This document shows, piece after piece, positions 646-26,558 of a stretch of 32,000 nt of DNA; position 1 is the first letter of the stretch, and each line of letters begins with the position of its first letter. Location: positions 390,001 through 422,000 of the forward strand of contig NC_014537.1 in NCBI RefSeq assembly GCF_000148385.1, read 5' to 3'. Under the pieces are notes generated by a model. The model saw only the letters and a program-made list of their open reading frames with translations, was not told where the DNA came from and searched no databases. The DNA is from Vulcanisaeta distributa DSM 14429. Its GTDB lineage: Archaea; Thermoproteota; Thermoprotei; Thermoproteales; Thermocladiaceae. Position numbers and translations under genes: made by a program.

Positions 646-1886
646 GGGTTAGCGACTACTTTAAACTGGCGTGGAGTGCAGCGTGGGAGCGTAGGGGTAG
701 GACTATAGGCGCCATTGTCGGGATAATAATAGCCATAGTGGCCCTTGGACTAGCCATAGGCATGGGGCAGGGCTATAAGGTGTTGACCACAAGCTTCTTC
801 GAGAGGGTCTTCGGGACGAACACAGTGTTCCTATTCCCAGGGCAGAACTCACAGTTGACGCTTACTGACGTCTATGAGGTCATGAACATACCGCACGTGA
901 CCAACGCCATACCCATACTCTCCACGGTGGCCAGGGTGAATATTAATGGGCATGAGGTCACGGCCACGATAATAGGGGCCACGGAGCAGGAGATAATGCA
1001 GCTCTACGGAGTAACCTCACTTAGCAATGCCATACTGGCCGGCGCCCCGGTACTTTCGCCAGGACTTGCGTTGGTTGGTTATAATATTGCCTTCACAAGC
1101 ACTGGTCAGCAAATTGCATACCCTGGGCAGGTGATGGTTATAACAACGCCAGGTGGTTCCGAGATAACCTACACGGTAGGGGCCATAATGCAGCAAAGCG
1201 GTATTGGCGTCATTGGCTTAAACCCAAACAATGCAATATTTATTGATGAGAACACATTCCTCTCGCAATTTGACCCGTCGGGCACGGTTGATGGGATAAT
1301 AGTTTACGTGGATTCACCAAACAACATTAACTACGTCACGGATGAGCTAAAGGCGATGTTCCCAATGGATCAGGTATTAAACCTATCAACACTACTATCA
1401 AGCATTAACCAATTCTTCACGGTACTCGAGCTCTTCTTAGCCTTCATAGCCGGGATAAGCTTCGTAATAATTGGCATTTGGATGTTCGACACAATGATGC
1501 TCAATGTGATCCAGAGGACGAGGGAGTTCGGGATAATGAGGGCCGTGGGCTTCAGCGGAAGGTCAATACCACTACTCCTAATTATTGAGGCTGCGATAAT
1601 AGCCGTAATCGGCTCCGTGATCGGCACGGCACTACTCATGGCCATAGTCAGTGTCTTCCCAAGTCCATCATCGTTCATGGGACCAGCCTTTGGAGGACCT
1701 GGCAGGGTTGCTAGGGGTGCTGCGGCAGCCGCCGCGTCGCCATCAATAATGCTACCCATAGCCCTAACGCCTCTTGACTTCGCCGCAATATTCATACTAC
1801 CCATCGTTATAAACGTGATAGCCGCATTGGTACCGGCATTAAGGGCCATGAGAATACCACCAGCCCAGACCCTGCGCTATGAATGA
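642..1886 (+). CDS. ABC transporter permease, FtsX/MacB-like (type VII)
   Basis: An N-terminal TM helix follows the basic segment WERRGRTIGAIVGIIIAIVALGLAIG. A soluble extracytoplasmic domain of about 230 aa comes next. The C-terminal FtsX domain has the canonical loop IQRTREFGIMRAVGFSGRSI and three further TM helices. The gene is translationally coupled to the upstream gene. Confidence 0.8.
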   Translation: MRVSDYFKLAWSAAWERRGRTIGAIVGIIIAIVALGLAIGMGQGYKVLTTSFFERVFGTNTVFLFPGQNSQLTLTDVYEVMNIPHVTNAIPILSTVARVNINGHEVTATIIGATEQEIMQLYGVTSLSNAILAGAPVLSPGLALVGYNIAFTSTGQQIAYPGQVMVITTPGGSEITYTVGAIMQQSGIGVIGLNPNNAIFIDENTFLSQFDPSGTVDGIIVYVDSPNNINYVTDELKAMFPMDQVLNLSTLLSSINQFFTVLELFLAFIAGISFVIIGIWMFDTMMLNVIQRTREFGIMRAVGFSGRSIPLLLIIEAAIIAVIGSVIGTALLMAIVSVFPSPSSFMGPAFGGPGRVARGAAAAAASPSIMLPIALTPLDFAAIFILPIVINVIAALVPALRAMRIPPAQTLRYE

Positions 1887-1919
1887 GACAATGGCGGCAA
1901 TAGCCTCAAAGTTAATGCA

Positions 1920-3011
1920 TTATAACTTGAGTACGGCCCTTCTGAGTATTGGGTCCGCAATCACGTAATCCTCATCAACCTTCTCCACAATTCCGTGGTC
2001 AATCAACTCCCTGAGAAGCACGTACAGCGATTTATCATTTATCGGCCTACCCTCCGCAGTCTCGAGTGCCGCCTTGAGCTCCCTCCAACTTCTTCTAACG
2101 AACAACTCCCTAAGCAATGCCCTATACCTGGGGCTCCTATTGGTTAGGAAGTTCCTAAGTTCATTGAGCGCCAAGGCCATTGCGGATTCAAGGACCTCAT
2201 CAAGTGATTGCCTACCCTCAACCACGTATTTGTGACCAATGTATGTTAACCAACCAATCACGCCATCGAGCTCATTCACAATACGCATCAACAACTCATC
2301 ACTAACCTGAACCCCATACTGCTCAAAGCCCCTCCTCAGGAAATCCAGGGACTCATCAGGACTAAGTCTCCTGGTGCTCGCGAAGTGTATGTACCTACCG
2401 AATAATGGAGCCTCTGGGTCATTAACGCGTAGGAACCTATCCAGCACACCAACCTCAGAACCGGATATGAGGAATTTTACGTATTTCAGGTTATCGTAGG
2501 AATACGCAAGCAATGCATTGAAGTCTATCCAAGTCACCCTACTTAGTTCCTGGGCCTCGTCAATCGCGATGATTACGGGATTGCCCAACTCCGTGCCAAG
2601 GTCATTAATGGCATTGAGTAACTCGCCAATGCTTAGCCTACGGAATTCACCCAGTTTAATTTCCACATGTATTGGTGATGCCCCAATCCTAACCCACCTA
2701 ATCCTGGATAGAGCATCCCTAACCCTATCGATTATTGGCTTATTCCTGGCAAGGAAATCCTCAAGCCCATGCCTAATTAATTCAATGAGGTCTGCCTGCC
2801 TAGGCCTGCCCGTGAACCTCACGTCCAGGTAAATGTATGGGTAACCAATCTCATTAAGTGCAACCCTCATTAACGAGGTCTTACCAGTCCTCCTTAAACC
2901 CCTAACGACGATTATCCTATCATTAATAATGCCGTTAATCAAATTCCTCAACTCAGCCTCAAAGTCGTAAAGATCCTCCCTCCTACTCTTAGGCTCAAGA
3001 TCAAATAGCAT
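1920..3011 (-). CDS. Archaeal AAA+ ATPase (Arch_ATPase/COG1672 type with a C-terminal DUF234-like wHTH region)
   Basis: Walker A is RGLRRTGKTSLM and Walker B is VIIAIDEAQEL. The C-terminal third is helical. It is a paralog of the gene at 25272..26348; both begin MLFDL(E/H)PK. Confidence 0.85.
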   Translation of the reverse strand: MLFDLEPKSRREDLYDFEAELRNLINGIINDRIIVVRGLRRTGKTSLMRVALNEIGYPYIYLDVRFTGRPRQADLIELIRHGLEDFLARNKPIIDRVRDALSRIRWVRIGASPIHVEIKLGEFRRLSIGELLNAINDLGTELGNPVIIAIDEAQELSRVTWIDFNALLAYSYDNLKYVKFLISGSEVGVLDRFLRVNDPEAPLFGRYIHFASTRRLSPDESLDFLRRGFEQYGVQVSDELLMRIVNELDGVIGWLTYIGHKYVVEGRQSLDEVLESAMALALNELRNFLTNRSPRYRALLRELFVRRSWRELKAALETAEGRPINDKSLYVLLRELIDHGIVEKVDEDYVIADPILRRAVLKL

Positions 3012-3051
3012 ACACCAGTTACTTACCCTATAGGTAAGCTTATTAACCCAA

Positions 3052-3510
3052 CTACCTCCTCGGCCTCAGCACAGCACCAAGTATAGCCAATATCACGCCT
3101 ATAATACCAATTACTATGCCCATGAGTTCGAATGCACCACCAGTTCTTAGCCCGCTAATAATGTAGTACGTAACAGTTACGGGTATTGAATAATTATTTA
3201 TCAAATATAGGTTACCCTTACCGGATAATACGGCATAGGCAACAACGTAATAACCATTAACATATTTTTGACTCCATTGCCCAGGGGCTGTAACGTAAAT
3301 CTCTAGGGGCTTATTAATGGAGTCCATGTAACTCACCGTTAATATCCTATCCGGATTTGCAGTACCTAGTGTAATGTTCCCACCAGGGGGTAAAGTTGCC
3401 GTTGTGACCGTGATCTTCGCCTGAGTAAGAACCATATATACGCCAATGGCAAATACCAAAACGGCAATCACGATCAAAACCGCACCAGTTATTAACAAAC
3501 CCCTCCTCAT
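3052..3510 (-). CDS. Membrane protein of unknown function with N- and C-terminal TM helices
   Basis: The ORF is 152 aa. The TM helices are LLITGAVLIVIAVLVFAIGVYMVL and MGIVIGIIGVILAILGAVL, the latter followed by RPRR. A beta-type ectodomain of about 85 aa lies between them. I recognised no catalytic motif. Confidence 0.55.
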   Translation of the reverse strand: MRRGLLITGAVLIVIAVLVFAIGVYMVLTQAKITVTTATLPPGGNITLGTANPDRILTVSYMDSINKPLEIYVTAPGQWSQKYVNGYYVVAYAVLSGKGNLYLINNYSIPVTVTYYIISGLRTGGAFELMGIVIGIIGVILAILGAVLRPRR

Positions 3511-3588
3511 GATATTATATGTCTAAAACCAAAGTAATTAAGCATTACTTCCCCATACGGTAGCAATAAATAAGAAAAGCCATAATTT

Positions 3589-3736: not shown

Positions 3737-4075
3737 TTAGTTCTTTAATGGCGGTGGTGCCTGCCTTGGTATTATCATGTGTATTGTTACATTATCAAAT
3801 GGCCTAATCCCGTACTTCTCCCTGATTTCCTTGGGTATCGTGAACTGCCTACTGGCCGTATGCCTAGTCCTGAGAAGCTTAACGTTATCGACCTCTATTT
3901 TATATCCATTGTACTCCATGATCACGCTCACATACTTAACCTTATCAAGCCCCAATGACCTGACGAGATTTGCCGGCACCAATACTTGATTATTTATGTA
4001 CACCTTTATTGTATATGGCAATTCATTCACTGGTAAACCCTTCCTACCAACCTTAATCTCCTCTGTGAACGTCAT
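3737..4075 (-). CDS. AbrB/SpoVT-like DNA-binding protein with two swapped-hairpin half-domains in one chain
   Basis: The C-terminal half, SRQFTIPKEIREKYGIRPFDNVTIHMI, matches the SpoVT/AbrB signature. The N-terminal half, NQVLVPANLVRSLGLDKVKYVSVIMEY, is a second, weaker copy. A TATA-like tttaaaa on the minus strand (4100-4106) lies 25-31 nt upstream of the ATG. Confidence 0.65.
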   Translation of the reverse strand: MTFTEEIKVGRKGLPVNELPYTIKVYINNQVLVPANLVRSLGLDKVKYVSVIMEYNGYKIEVDNVKLLRTRHTASRQFTIPKEIREKYGIRPFDNVTIHMIIPRQAPPPLKN

Positions 4076-7070: not shown

Positions 7071-8129
7071 CTATTTCTTATAATTCTTTAACAGCTCTAT
7101 CAATTCCTTAACAACATCTCTATAATCACCAACTATTCCATAATCCGCGTACTGGAATATCGGTGCATTTGGATCGCTGTTTATCGCCACGATTATCTTA
7201 GACTCCTTCATGCCGAATACATGCTGAATGGCACCACTAACGCCAACGCCTATGTATAGGGTTGGCCTTATGGTCTTACCCGTCTGCCCAACCTGCCTAT
7301 CAGCAGCCAACCAGCCAGCATCCACAACCTTCTTAGTGCCGCCAATTGTACCGCCAAGCAGCTTAGCGAGTTCCGTGAGTAACTTAACACCGTCTGCACT
7401 ACCCACGCCACGCCCAGCCACAACTACGATGTCTGCCTTCTCAACCGGCGGTAATTCCTCACCCTTAACCACAGACTTAACCTCAATCAGTCCCTGCCCA
7501 TTAATGCTAGGTATTGAGTTAATGGTCTCCTCTATAATCTCACCCTTCCTACTCGTATCCCTAGGTGGTGTTGGGAATACGTTAGGCCTAACACTGGCTA
7601 GTTGCGGTCTCCTAGTTGGAGTCCTTATGTGTGCGAGTATGTTACCGCCGTATGTCGGTCTCACCTGGTCTAAGTCCCTCGTTTTTGGGTCCACGTCTAG
7701 TTCCGTGCAGTCAGCCGTGATTCCAGTCCTCAATGAGTTGGCAACATATGGTGCCAGTTCCCTGCCTCTCTTAGTCGCTGCGAATAGTATTATCTCGGGC
7801 TTATACTTATTGGCTAGTTGAACAATGACGTTGGCGTATATGTGCGGTACGTACTTAGCCAGGGCTGGGTGGTCAACATAAATCACCTTATCCGCACCAT
7901 AGTAAATAGGCTCCTTAACAGCGTCGCCAAGATTATAACCAAGCACCACGGCTGTCACATCAGTGCTAATCTTACCAGCCAACTCCCTAGCCTTACCAAT
8001 AAGTTGCAGACTTCCATCCTTAATTACGCCATTTACATACTCGACATACACCCAAATACCCCTATACTCATTCTTATTCACTGGATTCCACTCACTACAG
8101 ATCTTCTGCTGAGCCTGTGCCGCACTCAT
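7071..8129 (-). CDS. etfA: Electron transfer flavoprotein alpha subunit (EtfA/FixB)
   Basis: The C-terminal FAD-binding region contains VVAGRGVG...PTLYIGVGVSGAIQHVFGMKESKIIVAINSDPNAPIF. The start overlaps the etfB stop (8126-8129). Confidence 0.9.
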   Translation of the reverse strand: MSAAQAQQKICSEWNPVNKNEYRGIWVYVEYVNGVIKDGSLQLIGKARELAGKISTDVTAVVLGYNLGDAVKEPIYYGADKVIYVDHPALAKYVPHIYANVIVQLANKYKPEIILFAATKRGRELAPYVANSLRTGITADCTELDVDPKTRDLDQVRPTYGGNILAHIRTPTRRPQLASVRPNVFPTPPRDTSRKGEIIEETINSIPSINGQGLIEVKSVVKGEELPPVEKADIVVVAGRGVGSADGVKLLTELAKLLGGTIGGTKKVVDAGWLAADRQVGQTGKTIRPTLYIGVGVSGAIQHVFGMKESKIIVAINSDPNAPIFQYADYGIVGDYRDVVKELIELLKNYKK

Positions 8130-8947
8130 GGCTTGATCACCCCCTCCTTAATTAGGTTATCAAGTAACCACTTGGCTGCCTCCCTTGGATCACCCTTGAA
8201 TACCTGCTTCTTCCTCTCTATGGGCTTGGCATCCTCGATCTTCGCAACTATCGTTGGTGAACCCCTAAGGCCGATACACTCCCTCTCCAGCTTCAGCGCG
8301 TTGTTATCGACGATCTTCACTAAGCCATTCAGTTTGGCCTCAACCTTCCTAGCGAGACTTATGTCCCTTGGCGGATTACTATTCTTATAAACACTGATTA
8401 TTATTGGCATCTTGTACTCGTAGGCCTCGTAGACACCCTCATCCTCAAGGTACCTGGTTACCACGATAAGCCTATCCTCAAGCTTAACCTCAGCGTCAAC
8501 TGCGTAATAAACATATGGCAGGTTGAGCCAGGAGGCCACCTGGGCGGGCATGTGGGCTGTTGTTGAGTCCGTGGTCTCCTCACCAAAGACTATAAGGTCG
8601 AAGTTAGGGAATAGTTTCTGTATGCTCCTTGCCACTGTGTATGAGGTAGCCAATGTATCAGCACCCGCGAATGCCCTGTCCGTGATTAGGTATGCCTCGT
8701 CAGCCCCCATGCCTATTGTTGATTCTAGGAAGTCCTTGCCACTCGGTGGTGCCATTGATAATGTTATTACTTTACCGCCATACTTATCCTTAAGCCTTAG
8801 GGCGAATTCGAGGGCGTTCCTATCGTATGGATTAAGCATCAGTGGTACTCCCTCACGCACGAGGTTATGGGTCACGGGGTCTAGCCTAACTGCCGTTACA
8901 TTAGGTACCGCTGCCTTCACAGGGACTATTATCGTTAATCCACCCAT
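8126..8947 (-). CDS. etfB: Electron transfer flavoprotein beta subunit (EtfB/FixA)
   Basis: The sequence IIVPVKAAV...LNPYDRNALEFALRLKDKYGGKVITLSMAPP...GADEAYLI is typical of the ETF beta family. TATA-rich sequence in the 78-nt spacer upstream (8948-9025) suggests the gene has its own promoter. Confidence 0.9.
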   Translation of the reverse strand: MGGLTIIVPVKAAVPNVTAVRLDPVTHNLVREGVPLMLNPYDRNALEFALRLKDKYGGKVITLSMAPPSGKDFLESTIGMGADEAYLITDRAFAGADTLATSYTVARSIQKLFPNFDLIVFGEETTDSTTAHMPAQVASWLNLPYVYYAVDAEVKLEDRLIVVTRYLEDEGVYEAYEYKMPIIISVYKNSNPPRDISLARKVEAKLNGLVKIVDNNALKLERECIGLRGSPTIVAKIEDAKPIERKKQVFKGDPREAAKWLLDNLIKEGVIKP

Positions 8948-9025
8948 CAGTAAAGAGCAGACATTTGACTTAATATGTATTTCTGAACTTTGACATATAT
9001 AGCATTATATAGTCTGCACGTTAAC

Positions 9026-9319
9026 CTAGCCAAACCTGTACTGAACGCCAAAGCCACTCTTGGGATAATTCCACTCAATGTTGTTCTCTGGACAGACTAC
9101 GCGGCATGTGCCGCACTCAAGGCAGCCCTCGTGTGAGAACAATACCGTGCCGTCCGGGCCTGGTGTGTAGCACCTGGCTGGGCATAGGTATAGGCAGGGC
9201 TTCTTATCGCACTTCCTGCATTGGTCAGGGTCTATAATCCTAATGTGGGGTCTTTGGTCAACGTCCCAGGCATTACTATTCAATCTCTCCTCAATTGGTA
9301 TCTTCCTGTCGAGACTCAT
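9026..9319 (-). CDS. fixX: Ferredoxin-like protein FixX
   Basis: The 97-aa product carries Cys motifs CRKCDKKPCLYLCP and CLECGTCRVVCP. It overlaps the fixC stop (ATGA at 9316-9319). Confidence 0.9.
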   Translation of the reverse strand: MSLDRKIPIEERLNSNAWDVDQRPHIRIIDPDQCRKCDKKPCLYLCPARCYTPGPDGTVLFSHEGCLECGTCRVVCPENNIEWNYPKSGFGVQYRFG

Positions 9320-10593
9320 AGGTTCATCACCAGCCTAATGGCATCCCTCGCCAAATCAATTAGTGTTAAATTGCCCTTACTCTCAAGTAGTGTTGAGCCC
9401 AGCTTTCTCGGTGTTCCATCAACCTCGAAGTACCTCCTCAATAGATTGTTTATCATTCTCACGTAATTACTATACAGCCTCGGCTCTATTAAAACCTTGT
9501 GTGCATTCCTAAAGGTCTTGAGCTCCCTAAGTACGAAGGACTCCTCAAGCAGTTTTCCGTAAACTGATAGCGCCTCATCATCGTATTTGCCCAATTCATG
9601 AGCCTTAGTAACAGCCTCGGCAGCCAACCTACCACTCTCCATGGCGAAGTCCACACCCCTAATTATCACGCCTAGGTGAAGCAGGAAGCCTGCAGCATCG
9701 CCGGTGACTAGGTAGCCATTACCGTATAATTTAGGTGGCGCAGCATTTATGCCGGCCACGGGCGTTAGGTGGGCTGAGTACTCGAGGAGTTGCCCTCCCT
9801 TAATCAATCTCTTGACCATTGGGTGTAGCCTGAACTCCTCGATTAGGTCGTGGACTGGCACATCCAGTTGGTAGCCATAACTTAGGTATATGACTATCCC
9901 CAGGGTTATGGCCTCCTTATTAGTGTATATGAAGGCGCCGCCCGGCAGGTAATGCGTTGGGAATCCAGCAAGCACCCACGCTAATCCCTCATCCTCATCA
10001 AGGTTAAACCTCTCATTAATCTCCTCCCTACTCAACTTAATGACCTCCTTAACACCAAGGGCCACTATCTCAGGGCTCAACTTAGGCGCTAGGCCACTCC
10101 TCTCGAGGACCAGCCTGTTTATCCCCTCGGCGATTATCGTCACGTCACCGTAGACCTCATCATTACCAGCCCTAACGCCAACCACCTTACCATCCCTAAT
10201 GATTAATGAGTCAACGGGTACCTCAGAAACAACGACGGCGCCTGCTGACTCCGCCTTCTTATCAAGCCACTCGACGAAGTTCGTTAAATAGGCCGTGAAT
10301 GATTTGTGTTCAACCTTCGTTGTTTCGAAGTCCACGGTTGTCCAGGAGTCCTCAGTCATCATCGTTATCCTCTCCCTCCTAACCCAACGCTCCACGGGTG
10401 CCTCCTTGACGTACTCAGGGTATAGCCTGTCGAGGACGTGGGCGTAAATCCTACCGCCAAAGACATTCTTACTGCCCGGCTTCTTACCCCTCTCAATTAC
10501 CAGCACCTTAAACCCCTTACTGGCTAATTGCTGGGCAGCCGTGAGCCCCGCCGGCCCCGCACCAACCACTATCACATCGAACTTTGTCCCCAC
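9316..10593 (-). CDS. fixC: FAD-dependent ETF:quinone oxidoreductase-like protein FixC
   Basis: The gene has a GTG start. The N-terminal dinucleotide fold is FDVIVVGAGPAGLTAAQQLA...VLVIERG. Both the size (425 aa) and the neighbouring fixX, etfB and etfA genes fit FixC. Confidence 0.9.
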   Translation of the reverse strand: MGTKFDVIVVGAGPAGLTAAQQLASKGFKVLVIERGKKPGSKNVFGGRIYAHVLDRLYPEYVKEAPVERWVRRERITMMTEDSWTTVDFETTKVEHKSFTAYLTNFVEWLDKKAESAGAVVVSEVPVDSLIIRDGKVVGVRAGNDEVYGDVTIIAEGINRLVLERSGLAPKLSPEIVALGVKEVIKLSREEINERFNLDEDEGLAWVLAGFPTHYLPGGAFIYTNKEAITLGIVIYLSYGYQLDVPVHDLIEEFRLHPMVKRLIKGGQLLEYSAHLTPVAGINAAPPKLYGNGYLVTGDAAGFLLHLGVIIRGVDFAMESGRLAAEAVTKAHELGKYDDEALSVYGKLLEESFVLRELKTFRNAHKVLIEPRLYSNYVRMINNLLRRYFEVDGTPRKLGSTLLESKGNLTLIDLARDAIRLVMNL

Positions 10594-10826: not shown

Positions 10827-12338
10827 ATGTCATCATTGGGCGATCACATTGATAAATTAGTTGAGAGGAAGGTGGAGGATTCAGGAAGTGGTGCTGGTGC
10901 GTTAATAGCGGCGATCAGGTTATTGAATAGGGGCGTTGTTAGATGGGCACTTAGGGTATTGACTAAGGAGGTTGAATTTAATGGTGAGAGGAAGCCATTA
11001 ATGGAGTGGGTGTTGGCAAAGTACGTGGGTGAATCCCAATGCCCAACTGTGACCCACTTTGTGGCTCCATTCTTTGAGATGGGTATGAAATTGGCAACGG
11101 CCTGGCTCCACGCGGATGAGGAACCCATTAAGCAGTTGCTCAGTGATCCAGCGATTAGGAGGGGTATAGTCACGACGCTGAGGGGCATAGCACTGTTCGG
11201 TGTTACAACGCCGCAGAAGCTCCCAGCCCCATTCTTCATAGTGTGGAACTTCACAAACGCCTGCAACCTGAAGTGCATGCATTGTTACCAAAACGCCGGT
11301 AGGCCGTTACCCAATGAGTTGGCGCTTGAGGAGAAGCTCAGGGTCGTTAAGGAGCTTGATGAGGCTGGAGTACCGGCTATCGCATTATCCGGTGGTGAGC
11401 CAACGGTTCATAGGGACTTCTGGCCAGTACTTGCTGAGATAAATAGGAGGGGCTTTTACTCGGCCATCGCCACTAATGGAACCACATTTGCGAACATTGA
11501 GTTTGCCGAGAGGGCTAAGAAGCTTGGGCTTAGGTATGTGGAGATAAGCATTGACGCTGCTGACCCCAATGTTCATGATAAGTTCAGGGGTGTGCCAGGT
11601 GCTTGGGCTAAGGCGGTGCAGGGGCTTAGGAATGCTGTTAGGCTTGGCTTTAGTGCGGCGTTGGCGTTTACCGTCACTAAGTACAACATTCATGAGGTTG
11701 ATAAGATACTTGACCTGGCCCAGGAGATTGGCGTTAAGAGGGTCGTATTCTTCAATTTCATACCGGTTGGCAGGGGCCGCGAGAACCTGGAGATTGATTT
11801 ATCACCTGAGGAGAGGGAGGAGTTCCTTAGGCATATTTATAAGGAGATGAGGAGGAGGAAGATGGAGATAATAAGCACGGCTCCTCAATACGGCAGGGTA
11901 GTTAATCAATTAAGCAATGGTGAGGACGTCTCACCAACACACTTCGTAGTCGCCAACGACCCCATAACTAAGGAGTTAACCGAGTTCATTGGTGGCTGTG
12001 GAGCTGGCCGTGTTTACGCAGCCATCGAGCCCGAGGGCACGGTAACGCCCTGCGTCTTCCTACCATACCCAGTGGGCAATCTAAGGACTAAGTCCTTCTG
12101 GGATATTTGGATGGATCCATTCATGGAGAACTTCAGGGATAGGGATAGGCTTGAGGGATTCTGTGGTAGGTGCCCATATAAGTTAATTTGCGGTGGTTGT
12201 AGGGCCAGGGCATATAACTACTTCGGTGACGTACTCGCCCCAGACCCAGGCTGCATATACAACTCGGCCGAGTGGAGGAAGTTGCAGGAGGATATACTGA
12301 GGATTAAGGTGAAGGTATCACCGTTAGTCTTCAAGTAA
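10827..12338 (+). CDS. Radical SAM enzyme with a C-terminal SPASM domain and an N-terminal extension of about 135 aa
   Basis: The radical-SAM motif CNLKCMHC (CX3CX2C) is at aa 146-153. A GGEP-type motif follows (LSGGEPTVH). The 7-Cys SPASM pattern reads C-x12-G-x4-C, then C-x2-C-x5-C-x2-C, then PGC. I recognise no motif in aa 1-135. Confidence 0.85.
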   Translation: MSSLGDHIDKLVERKVEDSGSGAGALIAAIRLLNRGVVRWALRVLTKEVEFNGERKPLMEWVLAKYVGESQCPTVTHFVAPFFEMGMKLATAWLHADEEPIKQLLSDPAIRRGIVTTLRGIALFGVTTPQKLPAPFFIVWNFTNACNLKCMHCYQNAGRPLPNELALEEKLRVVKELDEAGVPAIALSGGEPTVHRDFWPVLAEINRRGFYSAIATNGTTFANIEFAERAKKLGLRYVEISIDAADPNVHDKFRGVPGAWAKAVQGLRNAVRLGFSAALAFTVTKYNIHEVDKILDLAQEIGVKRVVFFNFIPVGRGRENLEIDLSPEEREEFLRHIYKEMRRRKMEIISTAPQYGRVVNQLSNGEDVSPTHFVVANDPITKELTEFIGGCGAGRVYAAIEPEGTVTPCVFLPYPVGNLRTKSFWDIWMDPFMENFRDRDRLEGFCGRCPYKLICGGCRARAYNYFGDVLAPDPGCIYNSAEWRKLQEDILRIKVKVSPLVFK

Positions 12339-12339
12339 G

Positions 12340-13761
12340 GTGATGAACATGAGAGTCCTACTTGCCGTCCCGCCGGGTATTGATAAGTTAGAACTGTATA
12401 AAGTGCTTGGTCTGAAAGCACCGCCACTTGGCCTTGCCTGGATCGCGGCAGTGCTCGAGAGGGCTGGCCATAAGGTTAGGATAATTGATTCACCGACCGA
12501 GGGCATTGACCTAAGGACATTCATGGGCGAGGTTAAGTCCTGGCAACCAGACGTTGTTGGCATAACTGCAATAACGCCAACAGTCTATAAAGCCTATGAA
12601 ACGGCTAAGGCGATTAAGGAGTATGATAAGGACCTGCCTGTAATAATGGGTGGTCCACATGTAACGTTCATGTATGAGGAAGCATTGAGCAATAACGTTG
12701 ACGTTGTTGTTAGGGGTGAGGGTGAATACACGACGCTTGAGCTCATAAATACGATGGAGAAGTATGGGATGGACCCAGCTCACCTAAAGTCGATAAGGGG
12801 CTTAGTGTTTAAGGATGGTGATCAAGTGATTAAGACTCCCGATAGGCCGCCAATCAAGAACCTGGATGAGTTACCACCGCCAGCCCGCCATTTATTGCCC
12901 ATGGATAAGTACACACTGTTTGGCAAACCGATTAGAATAGTCCATGTTATGGCAAGTAGGGGGTGCCCATACGGCTGCTCCTTCTGTTCCACGTCATACT
13001 TCTGGGGCAGGATAATTAGGTATAGGTCGGCCAAGGCCGTGGCTGATGAGATTGAGGATACCGTGAATACGTATAAGACAAACATAATCGTATTCACCGA
13101 TGATGAGTTTACACTCGGTAAGAGGTTCGTGTATGAATTTCTCAGGGAGCTTGAGGAGAGGAAGCTCGACATAAGCTTCTCCTGTGGTTCCAGGGTTGAC
13201 ACAATAGATAGAGAGATGATGATTGCGCTGAAGAAGCATGGGTGCACTGCGCTGTACTTCGGCGTTGAGTCGGGGAGTCAGGACACAATTAACAGGATCG
13301 GTAAGAGGATAACCCTTGAGCAAGCCGTTAGGGTATTTCAGTGGGCTAAGGAGATTAAGATAGACCACGTGGGCTCCTTCGTGATAGGCTTCCCATGGGA
13401 GTCGATAGACGACATGAAGAACACCGTAAAGTTCGCAATGAAGCTAAACCCGACATACGCCCAATTCACCGTTGCCACGCCATACCCAGGCACACCACTT
13501 TACTACCAGGCGCTCAGTGAGAACCTCATTGAGGATTGGAATTGGGAGCATTGGACGACGCTTAAGGCCGTCATGAGGGGTTACAAATTCACCAAGGAGC
13601 AGGCTCAGAAAATGCTTCAGTGGGCTTACGTGAAGTACTACAGTAGGCTTGGCTTCCTAATCCATGAGTTAATACATGGTAGGTTAGGTACAATAATATC
13701 CGCGATAAGGAACTCCCTAGTTCCCTGGTTCACGGAGAAACTGCTTAGGCGTGGTGAGTGA
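12340..13761 (+). CDS. B12-binding-domain radical SAM enzyme (class B type)
   Basis: The N-terminal region VLLAVPP...PPLGLAWIAAVLERAGHKVRIIDS is typical of the cobalamin-binding domain. The radical-SAM motif is ASRGCPYGCSFCS. Three in-frame starts are possible (GTG 12340, ATG 12343, ATG 12349). SD-like AGGTGAT at 12338-12344 favours ATG 12349. The upstream gene's stop is only 1 nt before position 12340. Confidence 0.85.
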   Translation: MMNMRVLLAVPPGIDKLELYKVLGLKAPPLGLAWIAAVLERAGHKVRIIDSPTEGIDLRTFMGEVKSWQPDVVGITAITPTVYKAYETAKAIKEYDKDLPVIMGGPHVTFMYEEALSNNVDVVVRGEGEYTTLELINTMEKYGMDPAHLKSIRGLVFKDGDQVIKTPDRPPIKNLDELPPPARHLLPMDKYTLFGKPIRIVHVMASRGCPYGCSFCSTSYFWGRIIRYRSAKAVADEIEDTVNTYKTNIIVFTDDEFTLGKRFVYEFLRELEERKLDISFSCGSRVDTIDREMMIALKKHGCTALYFGVESGSQDTINRIGKRITLEQAVRVFQWAKEIKIDHVGSFVIGFPWESIDDMKNTVKFAMKLNPTYAQFTVATPYPGTPLYYQALSENLIEDWNWEHWTTLKAVMRGYKFTKEQAQKMLQWAYVKYYSRLGFLIHELIHGRLGTIISAIRNSLVPWFTEKLLRRGE

Positions 13762-13762
13762 G

Positions 13763-14431
13763 TTAAGTGGCGTTGTTCAGTATCTCCCTCAAAACCAATA
13801 GGTTTCTCCTACCCGGTAACGTGGCGTTAATGAACGAGTCCCTATCCAAATTCACACCCCACTTACTAATTATCTCTAGAACCCTATCAAGGTCATCACT
13901 GAATGATCCATTCTCAACGTAACTATGCACCAAGTTCAGGGCGCTATACACGGTGTCGAGGCCGTAAACCCTCGCCAGCCACATGATTATGTCAGGTACG
14001 TTTAGTACAACTAGGTTCTTATCACTCAATCTAATGATCAGCCTCATGTAAAACGTTGTGACGTTGTTCACGGTGACACACTGAACCTTATTGCAGTCGT
14101 TATCGCTCACGATTAAGTTATCATGAACCCTAATACTCCCGGTCCCAAATTCAAGAAGCAATGACGCGCTCAATCTGCCAAACCTAAAAATCTCTATCTC
14201 ATTGCCAATCCTCTCCACAATCCTCCTCATGCGCTTAAAGAACTTATGAACATCATTCCTATCACAATTCCTAGCCACTAGGGGTGATGTTGCTAGTACG
14301 GGTAGATCCATGCAGTTGAGACCGAGGTTCTTACAGAATTCAGTCCTTTTATAAAGTATGAATAGTATTAGGTGTAGTGTGTCCAGGTATTTAATTGGGC
14401 ATTCATTAATTGGGACTTCCCTAAAATCCAT
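13763..14431 (-). CDS. Hypothetical protein (222 aa, Cys-containing, no recognised domain)
   Basis: This is a long ORF with no competing ORF on the other strand. TATA-like tttttaag lies on the minus strand about 35-40 nt upstream of the ATG. I could not assign a motif. Confidence 0.55.
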   Translation of the reverse strand: MDFREVPINECPIKYLDTLHLILFILYKRTEFCKNLGLNCMDLPVLATSPLVARNCDRNDVHKFFKRMRRIVERIGNEIEIFRFGRLSASLLLEFGTGSIRVHDNLIVSDNDCNKVQCVTVNNVTTFYMRLIIRLSDKNLVVLNVPDIIMWLARVYGLDTVYSALNLVHSYVENGSFSDDLDRVLEIISKWGVNLDRDSFINATLPGRRNLLVLREILNNAT

Positions 14432-16563: not shown

Positions 16564-18915
16564 ATGAGTAATTTGCCTCATTACCGGGAAGGTTTACGTG
16601 CCGTAACGGGCTCTGGCGAGTACATTGATGATATACCCACACCCCCGGGCACGCTTTATATGGCCATCTACAGAAGTCCCTATGCCCATGCCCGAATACT
16701 TAAGGTTGACTTAAGCGGGGTCTTTGAGCATGGCGGCATTGCCTATGGACCCAACGACCTGGCTAAGGTAATACCAAACCCATTCCCACTCGCGGTGGAT
16801 GCCCCAATTAAGTACTACCCATTTGCCCGGGATAAGGCTAGGTTTGTCGGTGAACCGATAGCGGTGGTCCTCGCAGACGACCCATACAGGGCAATTGACC
16901 TACTTGATTACGTCCAGGTGGATTTCGAGCCATTAAAGCCCGTATTGACTTTTGACGATGCATTAAGGGGTGATGTGCTTGTTCATGAGGAGCTTAAGTC
17001 GAACGTTGCCATGCATAGGCACATGAAATTCGGACCTGTGGATAAGGTATTCTCCGAGGCTCCCGTTGTTATAAAGCGTGAGTTCTACTATCAGAAGCAC
17101 AATGCAATGCCGCTGGAGACCTACGGTGTGCTTGCTCACTATACTGGTGGTGAATTGAACGTGTGGGCCAACGCCCAGGGACCATTATTAATAACCTATT
17201 TCGTAACGAGGGCCCTAGGCCTACCAACGGGTAGCCTTAGGCTCTTTGGCCCTAGGGACGTCGGTGGTAGCTTCGGCTCTAAGTACTCATTATACCCATA
17301 CATAACCCTGGCGGCCGCCGCATCAATACTAAGTGGTAGGCCCGTTAAGTGGGTTGAGAGTAGGACTGAGCACCTCGTGGGTAGTAACTCAGGCGGCGCC
17401 AGGAAGGGTGTTGTGGAGGTTGCTGCGACGAGGGACGGCGTGATCCAGGGATTTAGGTTTAGGTTTTATGAGGATGTTGGTGCATACCCAAGACCACCCG
17501 ATCCAGGGGTTTTGTTTAGGGTTCATGGAAACATGAACGGCGCATACGATGTTAGGGCTATCGAGGCTGAGGACTACGTAGTCGTAACGAATAAATTACC
17601 AACAGGCCTAAACAGGGCCTATGGAGGTCCGCCCTTCTACTTCATGCTTGAGGTTGCGGTTAACGAACTTGCCCGTGAGCTCGGCATAGACCCACTCGAG
17701 CTTAGGATCAAGAACCTCATTAGGGATTTCCCGAAGAGGATTGGTGATGAGTATTTCTATGAGACCGTTACCGGCGGGCTTTATCCGAGGCAGGATTATG
17801 AGAGGGTTGTTAGGGCGATCGAGCCTGAGTATAGGCGTTGGCTTGAGGAGAGGAGGAAGAACCCAAACATTGGTGTTGGTATTGCTGTATTGGTTGAGCC
17901 AGCAGGCACGAATCTTGGTTACACGGACCTGGCAATCGAACCAAGTAAGCGTAAGTACCCGCATTCAGGCTCTGGTTCCTACGTAACCATTAATATAGAC
18001 ATGAGCGGTTACATTAGGGTCTTTGTCAATGGCACCAATGAGGGGCTCGGCCACGAAACAACACTCGCCGAAGTGGTTGCATCGGAATTGGGTGTTGATC
18101 CGTCAATGATCATCGTGGAGAATAGGGTTGATACCACCAGGACGTGGGCATTATCGGACGGCTCCTACTCATCTAGGTTTGCCCCGATAGTGGTCAGCGC
18201 CGCCATACTGGCGGCTAGGCAGTTGAAGGAGAAGTTGACGAGAATTGCCATGTCCATTTTAGGCACGGATAAGGTTGGTTATGAGAATGGTCAGTTCTAC
18301 GACATAAACAATCCAAGTAGGAGGGTTGATATTAGGAGGATGGCATCATCAGTTAATTGGGACCCAGGTTCATTACCGGAGGGCTTGGACGCCTCATTGA
18401 GTGTCACGGTGTTTTATCAACCACCAACGGTTAAGGCTGCCGAGGGTGATAGGATAAACTCATCAGCCACATACGCAATACAGGCGCACTTGGCCGTCAT
18501 TGAGCTTGACCCGAACACGTATGACATTAGGGTTAGGAAGTACGTAATAGCCCACGACGCAGGCAGGATACTCAAGAGGGAGTTCGTTGATAGTCAGTTG
18601 ATGGGTGGTTTAATGCACGGTCTCGCCCTCACGCTTTATGAGGAGTTGATGTATGACGACCAGGGCAACCCATTAACGACGAGTCTCGACATCTATGAAA
18701 CACCGACAATGGCTGAGGCCGTGGGTATGGAGGTGGAGTTCATACACTTTGAAACACCCACGAAGCACCTGGTCTCCGGGGCTCATGGTGTTGGTGAGGG
18801 CGCAATGATGGGCGTGCCCGCGGCAATCGTCAATGCCCTAGCCTCGATAATTGGTAAGGCCATAACGGACCTGCCACTAAGGCCGTATAAGATAATGAGG
18901 GCTGTCGAGGGATGA
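16564..18915 (+). CDS. Molybdenum hydroxylase large (molybdopterin-binding) subunit, xanthine dehydrogenase/aldehyde oxidase family
   Basis: The 783-aa product contains the motifs GGSFGSKY and [19 protein letters not shown] (active-site Glu loop). The N-terminal a/b hammerhead-type region is [26 protein letters not shown]. Confidence 0.9.
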
Positions 18916-20333
18916 TGGGCATGGCGTACACCCTCGGTATTCCCAGGGGATTTAAGTATGTCAGAGCCTCGACAATTGATGAGGCCTTGAAGCTACTCAA
19001 TGAGTACGGTGGTGATGCCAAGGTACTTGCTGGCGGCATGAGCCTAATGCCCATGCTCAAGTTGAGGATGACCGAGGTTAAGTATTTGATTGATATACTC
19101 GGTATTAATGACCTTAGGTACATCAGGGTTGAGGGTAATCACTTAAGGATTGGCGCATTAACCACGCATAATGACATTGCAATGAATAGGGTAGTTAATG
19201 ATAACGCGAAGATATTGAGTGAGTCTGCATGGCACATAGCCGATATTCAGGTTAGGAACCTGGGTACAATAGGCGGTAGCCTAGCCCACGCAGATCCAGC
19301 GGCTAATTACTACCCAGCCCTGATAGCACTGGATGCCGAGGTCATGATTAAGGGGATTGGTACTGAGAGGGTCGTTAAGGTTTCAGACCTTTACAAAGGG
19401 CCATACATCACTGACCTAAAGCCCAATGAGTTAATTACAGAGGTCAGAATACCACTCAGCGGCCTTAGGGGTGTTTATGAGATCTTCAGGAGGGGTGGTG
19501 CATCGTTCCCAAGCGTTATCATAGCCGTTGCTTATCAGGAGAAGGATGGGGTTATAACAGACTCCAGGATATCCATTGGCGCCGTTTACCCAGAGCCCGT
19601 GCTAGTGAGCGGGCACTTGAATGGACTTGGGGTTAGGGAGGTTGGGGCTAAGGTTAATGACATTGTGAACTCCATATTCTCTTCAATAGACGCAAAGCCC
19701 CTTGAGGACACACATGCACCTGGTGATTACAAGGTCAAGGTTGCAAAGAACCTATTGACTAAGGCCTTAACGGAGATTGCCAATGGGTCCGTGCAGTACA
19801 TTAAGGCGCCCATTAAGGATGAGCTTATTAAGTGGGAGTTCAGGGATGGTGTTGAGTACGTTGGCGATTTGGTTAGGGTTAGGGTTAACGTTAATGGCCA
19901 GTGGATTGAGGACTTGGTTGAGCCGAGATTATTGCTTATAGACTTCCTGAGGAGGCATGGGTTTAAGGAAGTTAGGAGGGGTTGTGATGAGGGTAAGTGC
20001 GGCGCGTGTACCGTGCTTGTTGATGGTAGGGCTGTCAAGTCATGCATGGTCCCCGTGGTCAGGGTTTCAGGGCACTCAGTAACCACCGTAAGGGGTTTGA
20101 GTAAGGGAATGGAGCTACACCCAATACAGAGGGCATTCCTTGAGGAGTACGCAATGCAGTGCGGCTTCTGTACTCATGGCTTCATGATGGTGACGCATGA
20201 CTACCTCACGAACATAGACCCGACGGCTAACGATGATCTATTGAAACTAAGCATTAAGAATATTTGCCGCTGCACCGGTTACATAAACATAATTAAGGCT
20301 ATTAAGAGGGCAGCTAAATACCTACAGCCCTGA
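18912..20333 (+). CDS. Fused FAD-binding (CoxM-like) and 2x[2Fe-2S] (CoxS-like) subunit of the molybdenum hydroxylase
   Basis: aa 1-290 form the FAD domain ([13 protein letters not shown]...[14 protein letters not shown]...[15 protein letters not shown]). aa 321-473 form the Fe-S domain ([11 protein letters not shown]...SC and CGFCTHG...CRCTGY). An ATGA overlap with the large-subunit gene lies at 18912-18915. Confidence 0.9.
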
Positions 20334-20455: not shown

Positions 20456-20965
20456 TTAGCCAGATGTATGGATACTATTTGACCCTTTACTTAGAACGCT
20501 CATTAGTGCTCTCGCCTTAACTATGAATGACTTAATTAATGCTATAGCCGTTTCGTCATTTGGTATCTTGCTTCTAATGCCTTCCGGGTCTGGGCCGTTG
20601 TATTGATACTCATGTAATTGTAGGGCCATGGCAGTTAACTCAGCCACACCTGGGACTATTCTCTCCATCTCCGCGCTTAGCTCGGTCATTCTATTGGTCG
20701 GTATTACTGCGGCTATCCATTCATGGAATGGTATGGTGACATTCCCAACACGTTTATTCCCACGATATTTTTCCTGAAGTTGATCTGCATTCTTCAGTGC
20801 TAGATACGAGAGGAATGCCTTCCACGCCTGGAATGCCTTACCTGCCGCATTACTAGTGAGACCTTCCCTTAAGAAAACCTCCGCAACATCAAGCTCCTTC
20901 ATAGCCTCCTCAAGCCTCTCCTTCGCCAAAGCCTCTGTATTCAATCTTCTCATGCGAGCCTCCAT
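20456..20965 (-). CDS. PaREP1-family protein
   Basis: The sequence EEAMKELDVAEVFLREGLTSNAAGKAFQAWKAFLSYLA matches the PaREP1 family signature, which is common in Thermoproteales. The true start may be the second Met (20953). Confidence 0.7.
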   Translation of the reverse strand: MEARMRRLNTEALAKERLEEAMKELDVAEVFLREGLTSNAAGKAFQAWKAFLSYLALKNADQLQEKYRGNKRVGNVTIPFHEWIAAVIPTNRMTELSAEMERIVPGVAELTAMALQLHEYQYNGPDPEGIRSKIPNDETAIALIKSFIVKARALMSVLSKGSNSIHTSG

Positions 20966-24734: not shown

Positions 24735-25211
24735 CTAAATATCAACCACAAACGTGAGCCTCCAGTAGTTATCGGCCCTTTTAATCTCCATCATGTTGTA
24801 GGTCATCGCCTTGACTATCAACCCCCTATAACCATGCTTATTGATGTCGAAGTGCTCACCGCCAACGACAGCCCTGATCCTATACGGTCCATTACCCTCT
24901 ATACTAACCTCCCTGAAGTAGTCGCCATAGGCGAACTTCCTGCCATCGAATAGGTAGATGAACTCATCAATCCAATTAAACAATAACTGCTCAAGATCCT
25001 CACCCCCCACGTTAACCTCCACGAACTCCCTCGGCTCAACCCTATCAATGTAGTAGGTAAGGCCCGCAACCCCAAGTGCCGCGTTTTTGAAGGCCTCCTC
25101 AAGCGTGCAGCCGTAGGCTATCACGGCGATGTCCGCCGTATGCTCCCCATACTCATACCTAGTGGGTAATTGGCACTGCATCAAGATGCCATTACCAAAC
25201 CCCTTTAACAA
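24735..25211 (-). CDS. Archease (activator of RtcB-type tRNA ligase)
   Basis: [29 protein letters not shown] is the archease N-terminal signature. The C-terminal region ends [13 protein letters not shown]. The true start may be the internal Met at 25181. Confidence 0.88.
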
Positions 25212-25271: not shown

Positions 25272-26348
25272 TTAGTAATCCATTCGTAAGTACCTCTTAA
25301 TTAGCTTATCGTAATCAACCTCCCTAAGTATTGGGTCAGCAAGCCTATACTCACCCTCCCTGACCTTCACAACGAAGTTATAGTTAATTAAGGCATTCAA
25401 TGCGTTCAGGAGTTCCCTATCTCCGAATTCCCTACCAAGCCTCGTCGTCACGGCGAACTTTATATCCTTCCACCTATTCACGACTCTCAATGCGGAAAGT
25501 ATGGCTAGGTAGAGAGCCTTGTTAGCCTTGTCCTCGAGGAAGTGCTCAATCTCATTAACCATGATCTTAACCCCCTCATTAATCGTCTCCCTCAATGCCT
25601 CATCAACGTCTAAGCCCCTAACACCGTGATAATTACCAAATAATGTTAGCCAACCAACAACACCATCAAGCCTGTCAATGACGGTATCGAATGCGTTAAA
25701 TTGAATGCCCAATTCCCTGAAACCCCTCTTAAGGAATTCCCTGGATAATTCGTCATTAAACGGCTTTAGCTTAACCTCGACGGGTGGCCTGCCGTATAAT
25801 GGGGACTCGGGGTTTGGCTTGAGTAGTGTCTTTACGAGACCTACGTAGGATCCCGTGAATATGAATGAGACCCTTGGATTGCTCATGAATACGTTGCCGA
25901 GTATCCTCAAGAATTGACCAGTAACCCTACTTAACTCCTGAACCTCATCAAGCCCAATAACCGTATTCTCATCAATAGATAGTAAGAGCTCAAGCAGGCT
26001 ATTGAACACCCTGGAACCCCTGCTCAGGGTTATCCCTGCTGAACCGACTATGAAGTTTAGAGAGACGTTGAGCCTAAGCCTTAAGCGTGTCCTATTAACC
26101 TCATTAACTAGTATCGTTAATAAATCCCTAAGCGTTGTAACACCCCTGGCATTAATATAGATAGCCCTAAATCCCTCCCTAGATAATTCATTTAACACAA
26201 CCTTCATTAGGCTGGTTTTACCGATACCACGCTGACCGCCGATGACGACCCAATTACCAGCCCTAACTTGCCTCTTAACATACTCAACCTCCTCATCCCT
26301 ACCAAAGAGCTCATCTCTAGACTCCTTCGGGTGTAAATCAAAGAGCAT
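25272..26348 (-). CDS. Archaeal AAA+ ATPase (Arch_ATPase/COG1672 with a DUF234-like C-terminus), second paralog
   Basis: Walker A is GGQRGIGKTSLM and Walker B is VIGLDEVQEL. I place the start at ATG 26348 (MLFDLHPKESRDELFGRDEE) by alignment with the paralog's N-terminus MLFDLEPKSRREDLY. A TATA box upstream at the expected spacing supports this. The track ORF extends to 26564. Confidence 0.85.
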   Translation of the reverse strand: MLFDLHPKESRDELFGRDEEVEYVKRQVRAGNWVVIGGQRGIGKTSLMKVVLNELSREGFRAIYINARGVTTLRDLLTILVNEVNRTRLRLRLNVSLNFIVGSAGITLSRGSRVFNSLLELLLSIDENTVIGLDEVQELSRVTGQFLRILGNVFMSNPRVSFIFTGSYVGLVKTLLKPNPESPLYGRPPVEVKLKPFNDELSREFLKRGFRELGIQFNAFDTVIDRLDGVVGWLTLFGNYHGVRGLDVDEALRETINEGVKIMVNEIEHFLEDKANKALYLAILSALRVVNRWKDIKFAVTTRLGREFGDRELLNALNALINYNFVVKVREGEYRLADPILREVDYDKLIKRYLRMDY

Positions 26349-26380
26349 AGCAGACTCTGCAGTAACTGAAGACCCAGCAG

Positions 26381-26388
26381 TTATAAAG
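26381..26388 (-). promoter_or_regulatory. TATA box for the ATPase gene
   Basis: The minus strand reads CTTTATAA, 33-40 nt upstream of ATG 26348. This is consistent with a short 5' leader and supports the shorter gene model. Confidence 0.45.
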
Positions 26389-26558
26389 GCATCCCGAGAG
26401 ATAGTAACCAGCCCTTTAACCGAGTCTTCAGCCAATGAATAACTAACCATACTTACAGACGGAGAGGGTAAAACGTGAAATTGAGGATGGTAGGGTGTCG
26501 TAAATCCACGTGTTGTACCCGTGGGATTAATTTTTAAGTGGGCCAATGATTCACTAAT

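Follow-up and report, generated by a model that had tools for sequence, protein, structure and literature searches.

Organization of the locus

We analyzed a 32,000-nucleotide stretch of the genome of Vulcanisaeta distributa DSM 14429 (contig NC_014537.1, positions 390,001 to 422,000 of the forward strand; hereafter the window), in which two adjacent genes at positions 10827 to 13761 encode radical S-adenosylmethionine (SAM) enzymes. An initial annotation, made from the letters alone, had described the two genes as a tightly linked pair with no visible substrate gene. The data presented below identify gene 1, on its sequence, as gms, the gene of the synthase of glycerol monoalkyl glycerol tetraethers (GMGTs, or H-shaped glycerol dialkyl glycerol tetraethers, H-GDGTs), and point to gene 2 as gmm, which encodes a cobalamin-dependent GMGT methylase.

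Gene 1 (10827-12338, plus strand) encodes a protein of 503 amino acids that matches exactly ADN49813.1/WP_013335538.1 of V. distributa DSM 14429. Pfam profiles placed a Radical_SAM domain at residues 141-298 (E = 6e-29) and a SPASM domain at residues 391-450 (E = 4e-13), which confirmed that the protein is of the SPASM type. The motif CNLKCMHC at residues 146-153 (11262-11285, plus strand) and the seven SPASM cysteines (11997-12254, plus strand), both noticed initially, were recovered; C146, C150 and C153 as well as C391, C409, C446, C449, C455, C458 and C476 are invariant in an alignment of 36 sequences of the family. From the Pfam match and the alignment, the SPASM cysteines are assigned to two auxiliary [4Fe-4S] clusters. 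The first 135 residues contain a single cysteine, C72, and no Pfam family matched them even at E = 10, in agreement with the initial remark that no motif could be placed in this region.

Structure prediction for this N-terminal region, which had been proposed initially, revealed a defined domain. In the AlphaFold2 (AF2) model of gene 1 (predicted local distance difference test (pLDDT) 85.6; predicted template modeling score (pTM) 0.86), six helices are formed at residues 22-33, 36-45, 58-66, 74-93, 98-105 and 108-124, with pLDDT values of about 80-92. After them come the radical-SAM barrel, a pair of bridging helices, a hairpin region of low confidence and the SPASM domain. The helical domain (residues ~22-124; 10890-11198, plus strand) is delimited by the model and by the family alignment, and corresponds to the region assigned to COG4001 by Garcia et al. 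(PMC11214058). The best fold matches of the whole model were SuiB, PqqE, SkfB, BlsE and anSME.

Gene 2 (12349-13761, plus strand), the probable gmm, was delimited from its open reading frame (ORF), exact look-ups, Pfam matches and its adjacency to gms. It encodes 470 amino acids if translation starts at 12349 (WP_052885865.1), or 472 amino acids from 12343 (ADN49814.1/WP_013335539.1). Its B12-binding, Rossmann-like domain (12406-12744, plus strand) matched PF02310 at residues 23-135, numbered from 12340 (E = 1.3e-27), and the radical-SAM domain matched PF04055 at residues 206-366 (E = 3e-28); the initial classification as a B12-binding radical-SAM enzyme is therefore correct. The cobalamin-binding motif PPLGLAWIAAVLERAGHKVRIIDS and the motif CPYGCSFC are both present, as had been noted. 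The latter (12964-12987, plus strand) contributes C206, C210 and C213 in the 470-residue numbering and is invariant in an alignment of 28 sequences. The AF2 model (pLDDT 86.8) matched the folds of the class-B cobalamin enzymes MgmA, CysS, TsrM, OxsB and TokK, and also that of AprD4. An N-terminal B12-binding domain followed by a radical-SAM domain, in a protein of more than 400 residues, is the architecture of Gmm.

The TAA stop codon of gene 1 occupies positions 12336-12338 and is followed by three candidate starts of gene 2, GTG at 12340, ATG at 12343 and ATG at 12349, while AGGTGAT at 12338-12344 spans the junction. These elements of the initial description stand; the spacing of a single nucleotide holds for GTG 12340, the earliest possible start, and for no other. 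Judged from the sequence, ATG 12349 is the most likely start because a putative Shine-Dalgarno-like GGTGA (12339-12343, plus strand) lies 5 nucleotides upstream, because this start gives 470 residues, the length of most of the orthologues listed for the 90% cluster, because RefSeq uses it (WP_052885865.1), and because the alignment with a Methanopyrus homologue begins at its methionine. The spacer is therefore probably 10 nucleotides long instead of one. Spacers of 9-10 nucleotides separate gms and gmm in V. thermophila and Caldivirga, which matches this length, and a close coupling of the two genes is plausible.

Gene 1 and the Gms family

Gms was found independently by Garcia et al. (2024, PNAS; PMC11214058) and by Li et al. 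(2024, Nat Commun; PMC11186832). The protein encoded by gene 1 is itself listed in the Source Data of Li et al. as a homologue of the biochemically characterized MoGms (ADN49813.1; 40.21% identity, E = 2e-88, 503 residues), and it passes all thresholds by which these authors defined Gms with respect to MoGms, namely E below 1e-50, identity above 30% and a length above 420 residues (PMC11186832). Furthermore, the supplement to the preprint of Garcia et al. names as the Hgs/Gms of Thermocladium modestius the protein WP_188595677.1 (P0002), which is the orthologue of gene 1 in that species (81% identity). This supplement gives an NCBI accession for the T. modestius Gms only and designates the other genomes by JGI gene identifiers; V. 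distributa is entered there as a Gms encoder, with "HGM Group 1: Yes". Alignment of gene 1 with the gms homologue of Methanopyrus extended over residues 31-476 (43% identity, E = 2e-123).

The domain organization leads to the same assignment. Gms is described as an AhbD homologue carrying an N-terminal COG4001 extension of about 100 residues that forms a lipid pocket (PMC11214058); the extension consists of six helices, is hydrophobic and lipid-binding, and defines the family in both papers (PMC11214058, PMC11186832). In gene 1, the AhbD profile covers residues 138-479 only, and the six helices at residues 22-124 lie upstream of it. This N-terminal region can be aligned across homologues from Thermoprotei, Thermoplasmata, DPANN, Korarchaeota and ANME-1. 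The architecture of the model agrees with the description of MoGms by Li et al., whose supplement gives the N-terminus of that protein as MKTEDMAL (PMC11186832). The previously unexplained N-terminal region is accounted for because it is the family-defining lipid-binding domain of Gms; by analogy with these proteins, it would form the proposed hydrophobic pocket. The known Gms/Hbs proteins (Tg-Gms, WP_062369926.1; Pf-Gms, PF0647; Tc-Gms; and MoGms, METOK_RS04425) have in common with gene 1 the AhbD-like radical-SAM/SPASM core, the six-helix N-terminal domain, the bridging helices and hairpin, and a length of about 500 residues. On this sequence evidence, gene 1 is Gms, the GMGT synthase, and we regard the assignment as settled.

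Two features distinguish the V. distributa protein within the family. An insertion specific to Thermoprotei is found in the N-terminal domain at residues ~46-57 (nucleotides ~10962-11045, including C72), where the model shows a β-hairpin at residues 48-57; it is absent from the Gms homologues of Thermoplasmata, DPANN and Korarchaeota. Near it, a "CP" motif containing the conserved C72 occurs in 16 of the 36 aligned sequences (44%), all of them rows of the Thermoprotei type. In addition, some family members have extra cysteines in the SPASM region where V. distributa Gms has A352 (cysteine in 19% of the sequences) and A398 (36%).

The names under which the pair is deposited, "heme biosynthesis protein" and "Mg-protoporphyrin IX monomethyl ester cyclase", suggest another reading, in which an AhbD/NirJ-type decarboxylase and a BchE-type cyclase would act on tetrapyrroles. 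The best NCBIfam matches are indeed of this kind: gene 1 scored 255 bits with AhbD and 245 bits with NirJ2, and gene 2 scored 239 bits with BchE. However, the corresponding cut-offs are 500 bits for AhbD (TIGR04545) and 481 bits for BchE (TIGR02026). All Ahb/NirJ equivalog models gave 191-255 bits on gene 1 against cut-offs of 500-650, and TIGR04053 gave 239 against 395. AhbD, NirJ2 and TIGR04053 are thus the closest curated families to the core of gene 1 (residues 138-479), which reaches about half of their cut-offs. AhbD is a protein of about 340 residues acting on a tetrapyrrole and without the N-terminal lipid domain that defines Gms (PMC11214058), whereas gene 1 has 503 residues including the 135-residue extension. 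One related pair, in a Thermoplasma-like metagenome-assembled genome (MAG; locus L007), lies about 1 kb from a TIGR04053 gene and a NirJ1/AhbC-like gene, which puts heme-type paralogues in the immediate vicinity of gms. This TIGR04053 radical-SAM/SPASM gene is a separate and genuine member of its family, with 358 residues, 468 bits versus the cut-off of 395, and no N-terminal domain. Moreover, no tetrapyrrole genes were found beside the pair within the window, and characterized homologues of gene 1 make GMGTs in vivo and in vitro (PMC11214058, PMC11186832). A tetrapyrrole function is hence very improbable.

The initial annotation had considered instead a Tes-like tetraether synthase joined to a Grs-like ring synthase. 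The direction toward archaeal lipid chemistry was right: both of the activities then proposed act on tetraether lipids, and Gms and Tes (GDGT-MAS; MJ0619, PDB 7TOL, and Saci_0703) are both enzymes of about 500 residues with several Fe-S clusters, N-terminal extensions and SPASM-like domains that form C(sp3)-C(sp3) bonds between archaeal isoprenoid chains. The enzymes nevertheless differ in their reaction, since Tes joins chain termini and possesses a rubredoxin-like site, while Gms bridges mid-chain carbons without such a site. Comparison of gene 1 with 7tol, which led us to reject Tes as its identity, gave 49 bits (E = 4e-12) restricted to the radical-SAM core, and the fold ranked 23rd with a template modeling (TM) score of 0.35. 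The rubredoxin-like four-cysteine site, whose absence had already been remarked upon, is not present in the gene 1 alignment. Gms is separate from Tes in sequence-similarity networks (PMC11186832), and the Tes of Sulfolobus acidocaldarius is Saci_0703, homologues of which were defined at E below 1e-50 and identity above 30%. Searching with the primer-derived termini of Saci_0703 (MTETVQE... and ...EFTSS) returned no useful match. Taken together, a Tes-Grs pair has hardly any likelihood.

SPASM enzymes often act on peptides, and the fold of gene 1 resembles SuiB, SkfB and PqqE, so a maturase pair for a ribosomally synthesized and post-translationally modified peptide (RiPP) or a cofactor, acting on an unannotated peptide, was also weighed. 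The earlier statement that no short precursor-like ORF flanks the pair proved accurate, as the only small ORF nearby, which would encode 46 residues on the minus strand, lies in the intergenic region upstream. None of the loci examined has a conserved small ORF close to the pair, the neighbors differ wholly from genome to genome with the exception of the pair itself, and a lipid substrate has been demonstrated for the Gms family (PMC11214058, PMC11186832). We therefore give a peptide substrate almost no credence. The membrane lipid that serves as the substrate of Gms explains why no precursor gene accompanies the pair.

Gene 2 and its conserved linkage to gms

According to Garcia et al., the B12-binding radical-SAM gene that often accompanies gms encodes Gmm, and gms-gmm clusters occur in Thermoprotei and in Methanopyrus kandleri (PMC11214058). 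The same authors count in V. distributa exactly one Gmm homologue and two Grs homologues. In every Thermoprotei locus that we examined, the sole B12 gene beside gms is the orthologue of gene 2. When gene 2 was searched against 1.84 billion representatives, its own 50% cluster scored 653 bits, and the scores then fell sharply to 375 bits or less. The third-best representative is the Methanopyrus B12 enzyme encoded 3 nucleotides downstream of gms; it is 38% identical to gene 2 by BLASTP (E = 3e-113; 40% in the search table), and a rough neighbor-joining tree places both proteins in one clade of 24 members. Gmm proteins are defined by E values of 1e-65 or below to Tg-Gmm and by a clade separate from MoeK5 and Grs, a comparison for which the Methanopyrus enzyme served here as a proxy. 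Like Gmm/Hgm (Tg-Gmm, WP_062369928.1), gene 2 combines B12-binding and radical-SAM domains in about 470 residues and neighbors gms. The cluster of Thermococcus guaymasensis also holds a grs gene, whereas that of V. distributa consists of two genes only. This indirect evidence favors the identification of gene 2 as Gmm, which we hold to be the most probable one.

The linkage was evaluated in every genome opened for orthologues of the pair. Orthologues of genes 1 and 2 were adjacent in eight other loci from seven organisms, and the tight linkage noticed initially is strongly conserved. The order gms then gmm was found in V. thermophila (L009), Caldivirga maquilingensis (L011), the Thermoplasma-like MAG (L007) and Methanopyrus sp. 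(L012). Relative to the V. distributa pair, the order is reversed in relatives from the Desulfurococcales and Acidilobales: gmm precedes gms, with an overlap of 1-4 nucleotides, in Pyrodictium occultum (L001), Staphylothermus hellenicus (L003) and Caldisphaera lagunensis (L005). Judged by their lengths, at least 21 contigs appear to be common to the lists of the best 120 matches of gene 1 and gene 2. Apart from the pair itself, no neighbor is shared across the examined genera. The linkage is kept despite the change of gene order, which argues for a functional coupling of the two genes.

Full-length relatives of both proteins occur at 55-60% identity throughout the Thermoprotei; the gene 1 family also has members in Thermoplasmata, Korarchaeota, ANME-1, Micrarchaeota and Aenigmarchaeota. 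Protein searches, including one seeded from the MAG of locus L007, which is labeled Sulfolobaceae, revealed no orthologue of the pair in cultured Sulfolobaceae. The gms gene of this MAG (pair at 1265-3585 of the locus) is closest to Thermoplasma (64%). An incorrect taxonomic label of the MAG or a horizontal acquisition of the region may account for this.

Several representatives of 50% clusters near gene 2 have other contexts. Two of them, P0410 and P0413, are not encoded beside gms. A third, P0417 (RLE55227.1; 41% identity to gene 2), comes from a Thermoprotei MAG (L014, 6001-8990), where its gene converges on a radical-SAM gene for 518 residues in which no SPASM match was found; with its partner of the size of Tes, it may constitute another lipid-modifying pair. 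From these contexts, the linkage to gms is specific to the orthogroup of gene 2 and the Methanopyrus clade and does not extend to all near relatives.

The most serious alternative for gene 2 concerns the ring synthases. If gene 1 is Gms and gene 2 a GrsA-type B12 radical-SAM ring synthase, cross-linking of the chains would be coupled with cyclopentane ring formation. GrsA/GrsB, as well as Cgm/Pgm, are homologous to gene 2 and are B12-binding radical-SAM lipid enzymes of the same organisms; Grs and Gmm are themselves homologous, and V. distributa has GrsA and a second Grs that were not located. The reactions are distinct, for Grs cyclizes and Cgm/Pgm methylate unbridged GDGTs, unlike Gmm. The genomic distribution speaks for the methylase: Grs and Cgm genes in Sulfolobaceae occur without gms, whereas the orthogroup of gene 2 tracks gms, and the gene found beside gms in Thermoprotei and Methanopyrus is gmm (PMC11214058). 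Concomitantly, no protein of Pyrobaculum, Thermoproteus or cultured Sulfolobaceae was among the best 120 matches of gene 2, although grs homologues are reported in Pyrobaculum. The orthologue in Caldivirga lies at 1.157 Mb of 2.078 Mb, a position that excludes Cmaq_1853 (GrsB'). A ring synthase beside Gms is therefore unlikely, and the second half of the initial lipid proposal, like its Tes-like first half, gives way to a probable Gmm.

Several points weigh against this reading of the pair as gms and gmm. Gene 2 is placed as Gmm, as opposed to Grs, by its genomic context, the Methanopyrus homologue and the statement of Garcia et al. The identities of its B12 radical-SAM relatives run without a break over 35-43%, and identity alone does not classify gene 2. 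In Euryarchaeota, grs genes can also neighbor gms; they are part of the gms cluster of T. guaymasensis and lie beside gmm in Archaeoglobus profundus (PMC11214058). The GrsA of V. distributa is 54% identical to Saci_1585, and a match at that level would fall just below the listed best 120. Two exact-pattern scans of a collection of genome contigs with published primers of the S. acidocaldarius GrsA locus gave no match, one of the primers being likely mistranscribed (a TC/CT transposition). As for the transcript, we infer co-transcription or co-translation of the two genes. Finally, V. distributa Gms has seven cysteines in the SPASM region, whereas both auxiliary clusters of MoGms are fully ligated by cysteines (PMC11186832); judged from the sequence, one auxiliary cluster of the V. 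distributa enzyme may lack its fourth cysteine ligand.

The surroundings of the pair are conserved within the genus. Full synteny with V. thermophila (L009) extends over fixABCX-like genes, the pair, a hypothetical gene, S24e, Spt4, a HhH-GPD gene, Tsr3 and a molybdopterin dehydrogenase. In the window, a FixABCX-like electron transfer flavoprotein (ETF) operon on the minus strand (7071-10593) is divergent from gms. It encodes ETF alpha (7071-8129), ETF beta (8126-8947), a ferredoxin-like FixX (9026-9319) and an ETF-QO/FixC-like flavoprotein (9316-10593). This arrangement also occurs in V. thermophila, and was not found beside the pair in other genera. On the other side, an ORF for 222 residues on the minus strand (13763-14431) faces gmm, the two 3′ ends being separated by a gap of 1 nucleotide; it gave no Pfam or NCBIfam match. 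At the equivalent place, V. thermophila (L009, 11427-12086) and C. maquilingensis (L011, 4458-5114) have a gene for 218-219 residues, likewise without a Pfam match; a counterpart is absent from the loci of the other lineages.

Further downstream, positions 16564-20333 hold a cluster of two genes for a molybdopterin dehydrogenase of the aldehyde oxidase/CO-dehydrogenase family, with a large subunit of 783 residues and a fused FAD-binding/[2Fe-2S] subunit of 473 residues; this region is syntenic with V. thermophila. The window also carries two archaeal ATPase_2 (PF01637) genes (1920-3011 and 25272-26564, minus strand) and a PaREP1 gene (20456-20965, minus strand). Such ATPase_2 and PaREP1 genes are typical variable or accessory genes of the Thermoproteales. 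It further contains a MazE-like ORF (3737-4075), an archease gene (24735-25211) and MacB/ABC transporter genes (642-1886 and 27106-29377).

Tetraether lipids of V. distributa and the proposed function

Garcia et al. analyzed the lipids concerned in V. distributa DSM 14429, which they used as a test organism and which, according to them, possesses Gms, Gmm, GrsA and GrsB (PMC11214058). GMGTs make up 0.5% of its monolayer lipids at 85°C but 22% of them at 99°C; GMGT-2 to GMGT-6 are present, with up to six rings, and the methylation index of the GMGTs increases from 0.09 at 85°C to 0.34 at 99°C (PMC11214058). The strain makes mono- and dimethylated GMGTs and was scored by these authors as having a group 1 Gmm. 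For homologues, the activities of both Gms and Gmm have been demonstrated, with GMGT synthesis in vivo and in vitro (PMC11214058, PMC11186832). Gmm prefers the GMGT product, and with a catalytically dead Gms, unbridged GDGT was not methylated (PMC11214058). We consider, with a probability of roughly 0.85, that the pair is the gms-gmm operon of V. distributa DSM 14429 and modifies the organism's own membrane-spanning tetraether lipids.

By analogy with the published enzymes, the following radical mechanisms may be proposed. Gms is a radical-SAM enzyme with three [4Fe-4S] clusters, in which 5′-deoxyadenosyl radicals would take a hydrogen from each of two chains. The first substrate radical would probably be parked or stabilized by an auxiliary cluster before coupling, and the inter-chain C(sp3)-C(sp3) bond would give rise to the H-shaped GMGT. 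For Gmm, which is a methylase of the class-B (cobalamin) radical-SAM type, the canonical cycle is expected: one SAM would methylate cob(I)alamin, a second would provide the 5′-deoxyadenosyl radical that takes a hydrogen from the alkyl chain, and the methyl group would pass from methylcobalamin to the substrate radical, yielding mono- to trimethylated GMGTs.

Whichever gene comes first, the two remain adjacent, often with an overlap of 1-4 nucleotides, across archaea as different as Thermoprotei, Methanopyrus and Thermoplasma-like lineages. For this reason, one may envisage an obligate complex between Gms and the B12 enzyme in Thermoprotei, or a role of the gene 2 clade beyond simple methylation, such as control of the GMGT isomer or bridge position, or an action on cyclized GMGTs. 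Separately, given the seven cysteines in the SPASM region of this Gms, an auxiliary cluster with an open coordination site might capture the first lipid radical. These ideas are speculative, and we judge them improbable.

GMGTs are H-shaped tetraethers that make the monolayer membranes of archaea stiffer at very high temperature; they are also used as biomarkers in sediments and are precursors of ARN acids. The initial annotation had left the assignment open and suggested that the pair might be something not yet described. It had named as contrary outcomes a firm clustering of gene 1 with the Ahb/NirJ families together with an adjacency not conserved in related genomes. Gene 1 is near AhbD and NirJ but stays at 255 bits against 500, and the adjacency is conserved. 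The claim of novelty fails on other grounds, since both families were published in 2024 with V. distributa among the test cases. The gms-gmm pair is already known, and V. distributa DSM 14429 is one of the strains that validated it.

The value of the present analysis is thus corrective and brings no new biology: the public names of the two genes are misleading, and from sequence alone the two genes are easily misread as an orphan system for a RiPP or a cofactor. Beyond these names, a minor interest resides in the reversal of gene order with the linkage kept, in the Thermoprotei insertion with C72, and in the seven cysteines of the SPASM region of the V. distributa enzyme.

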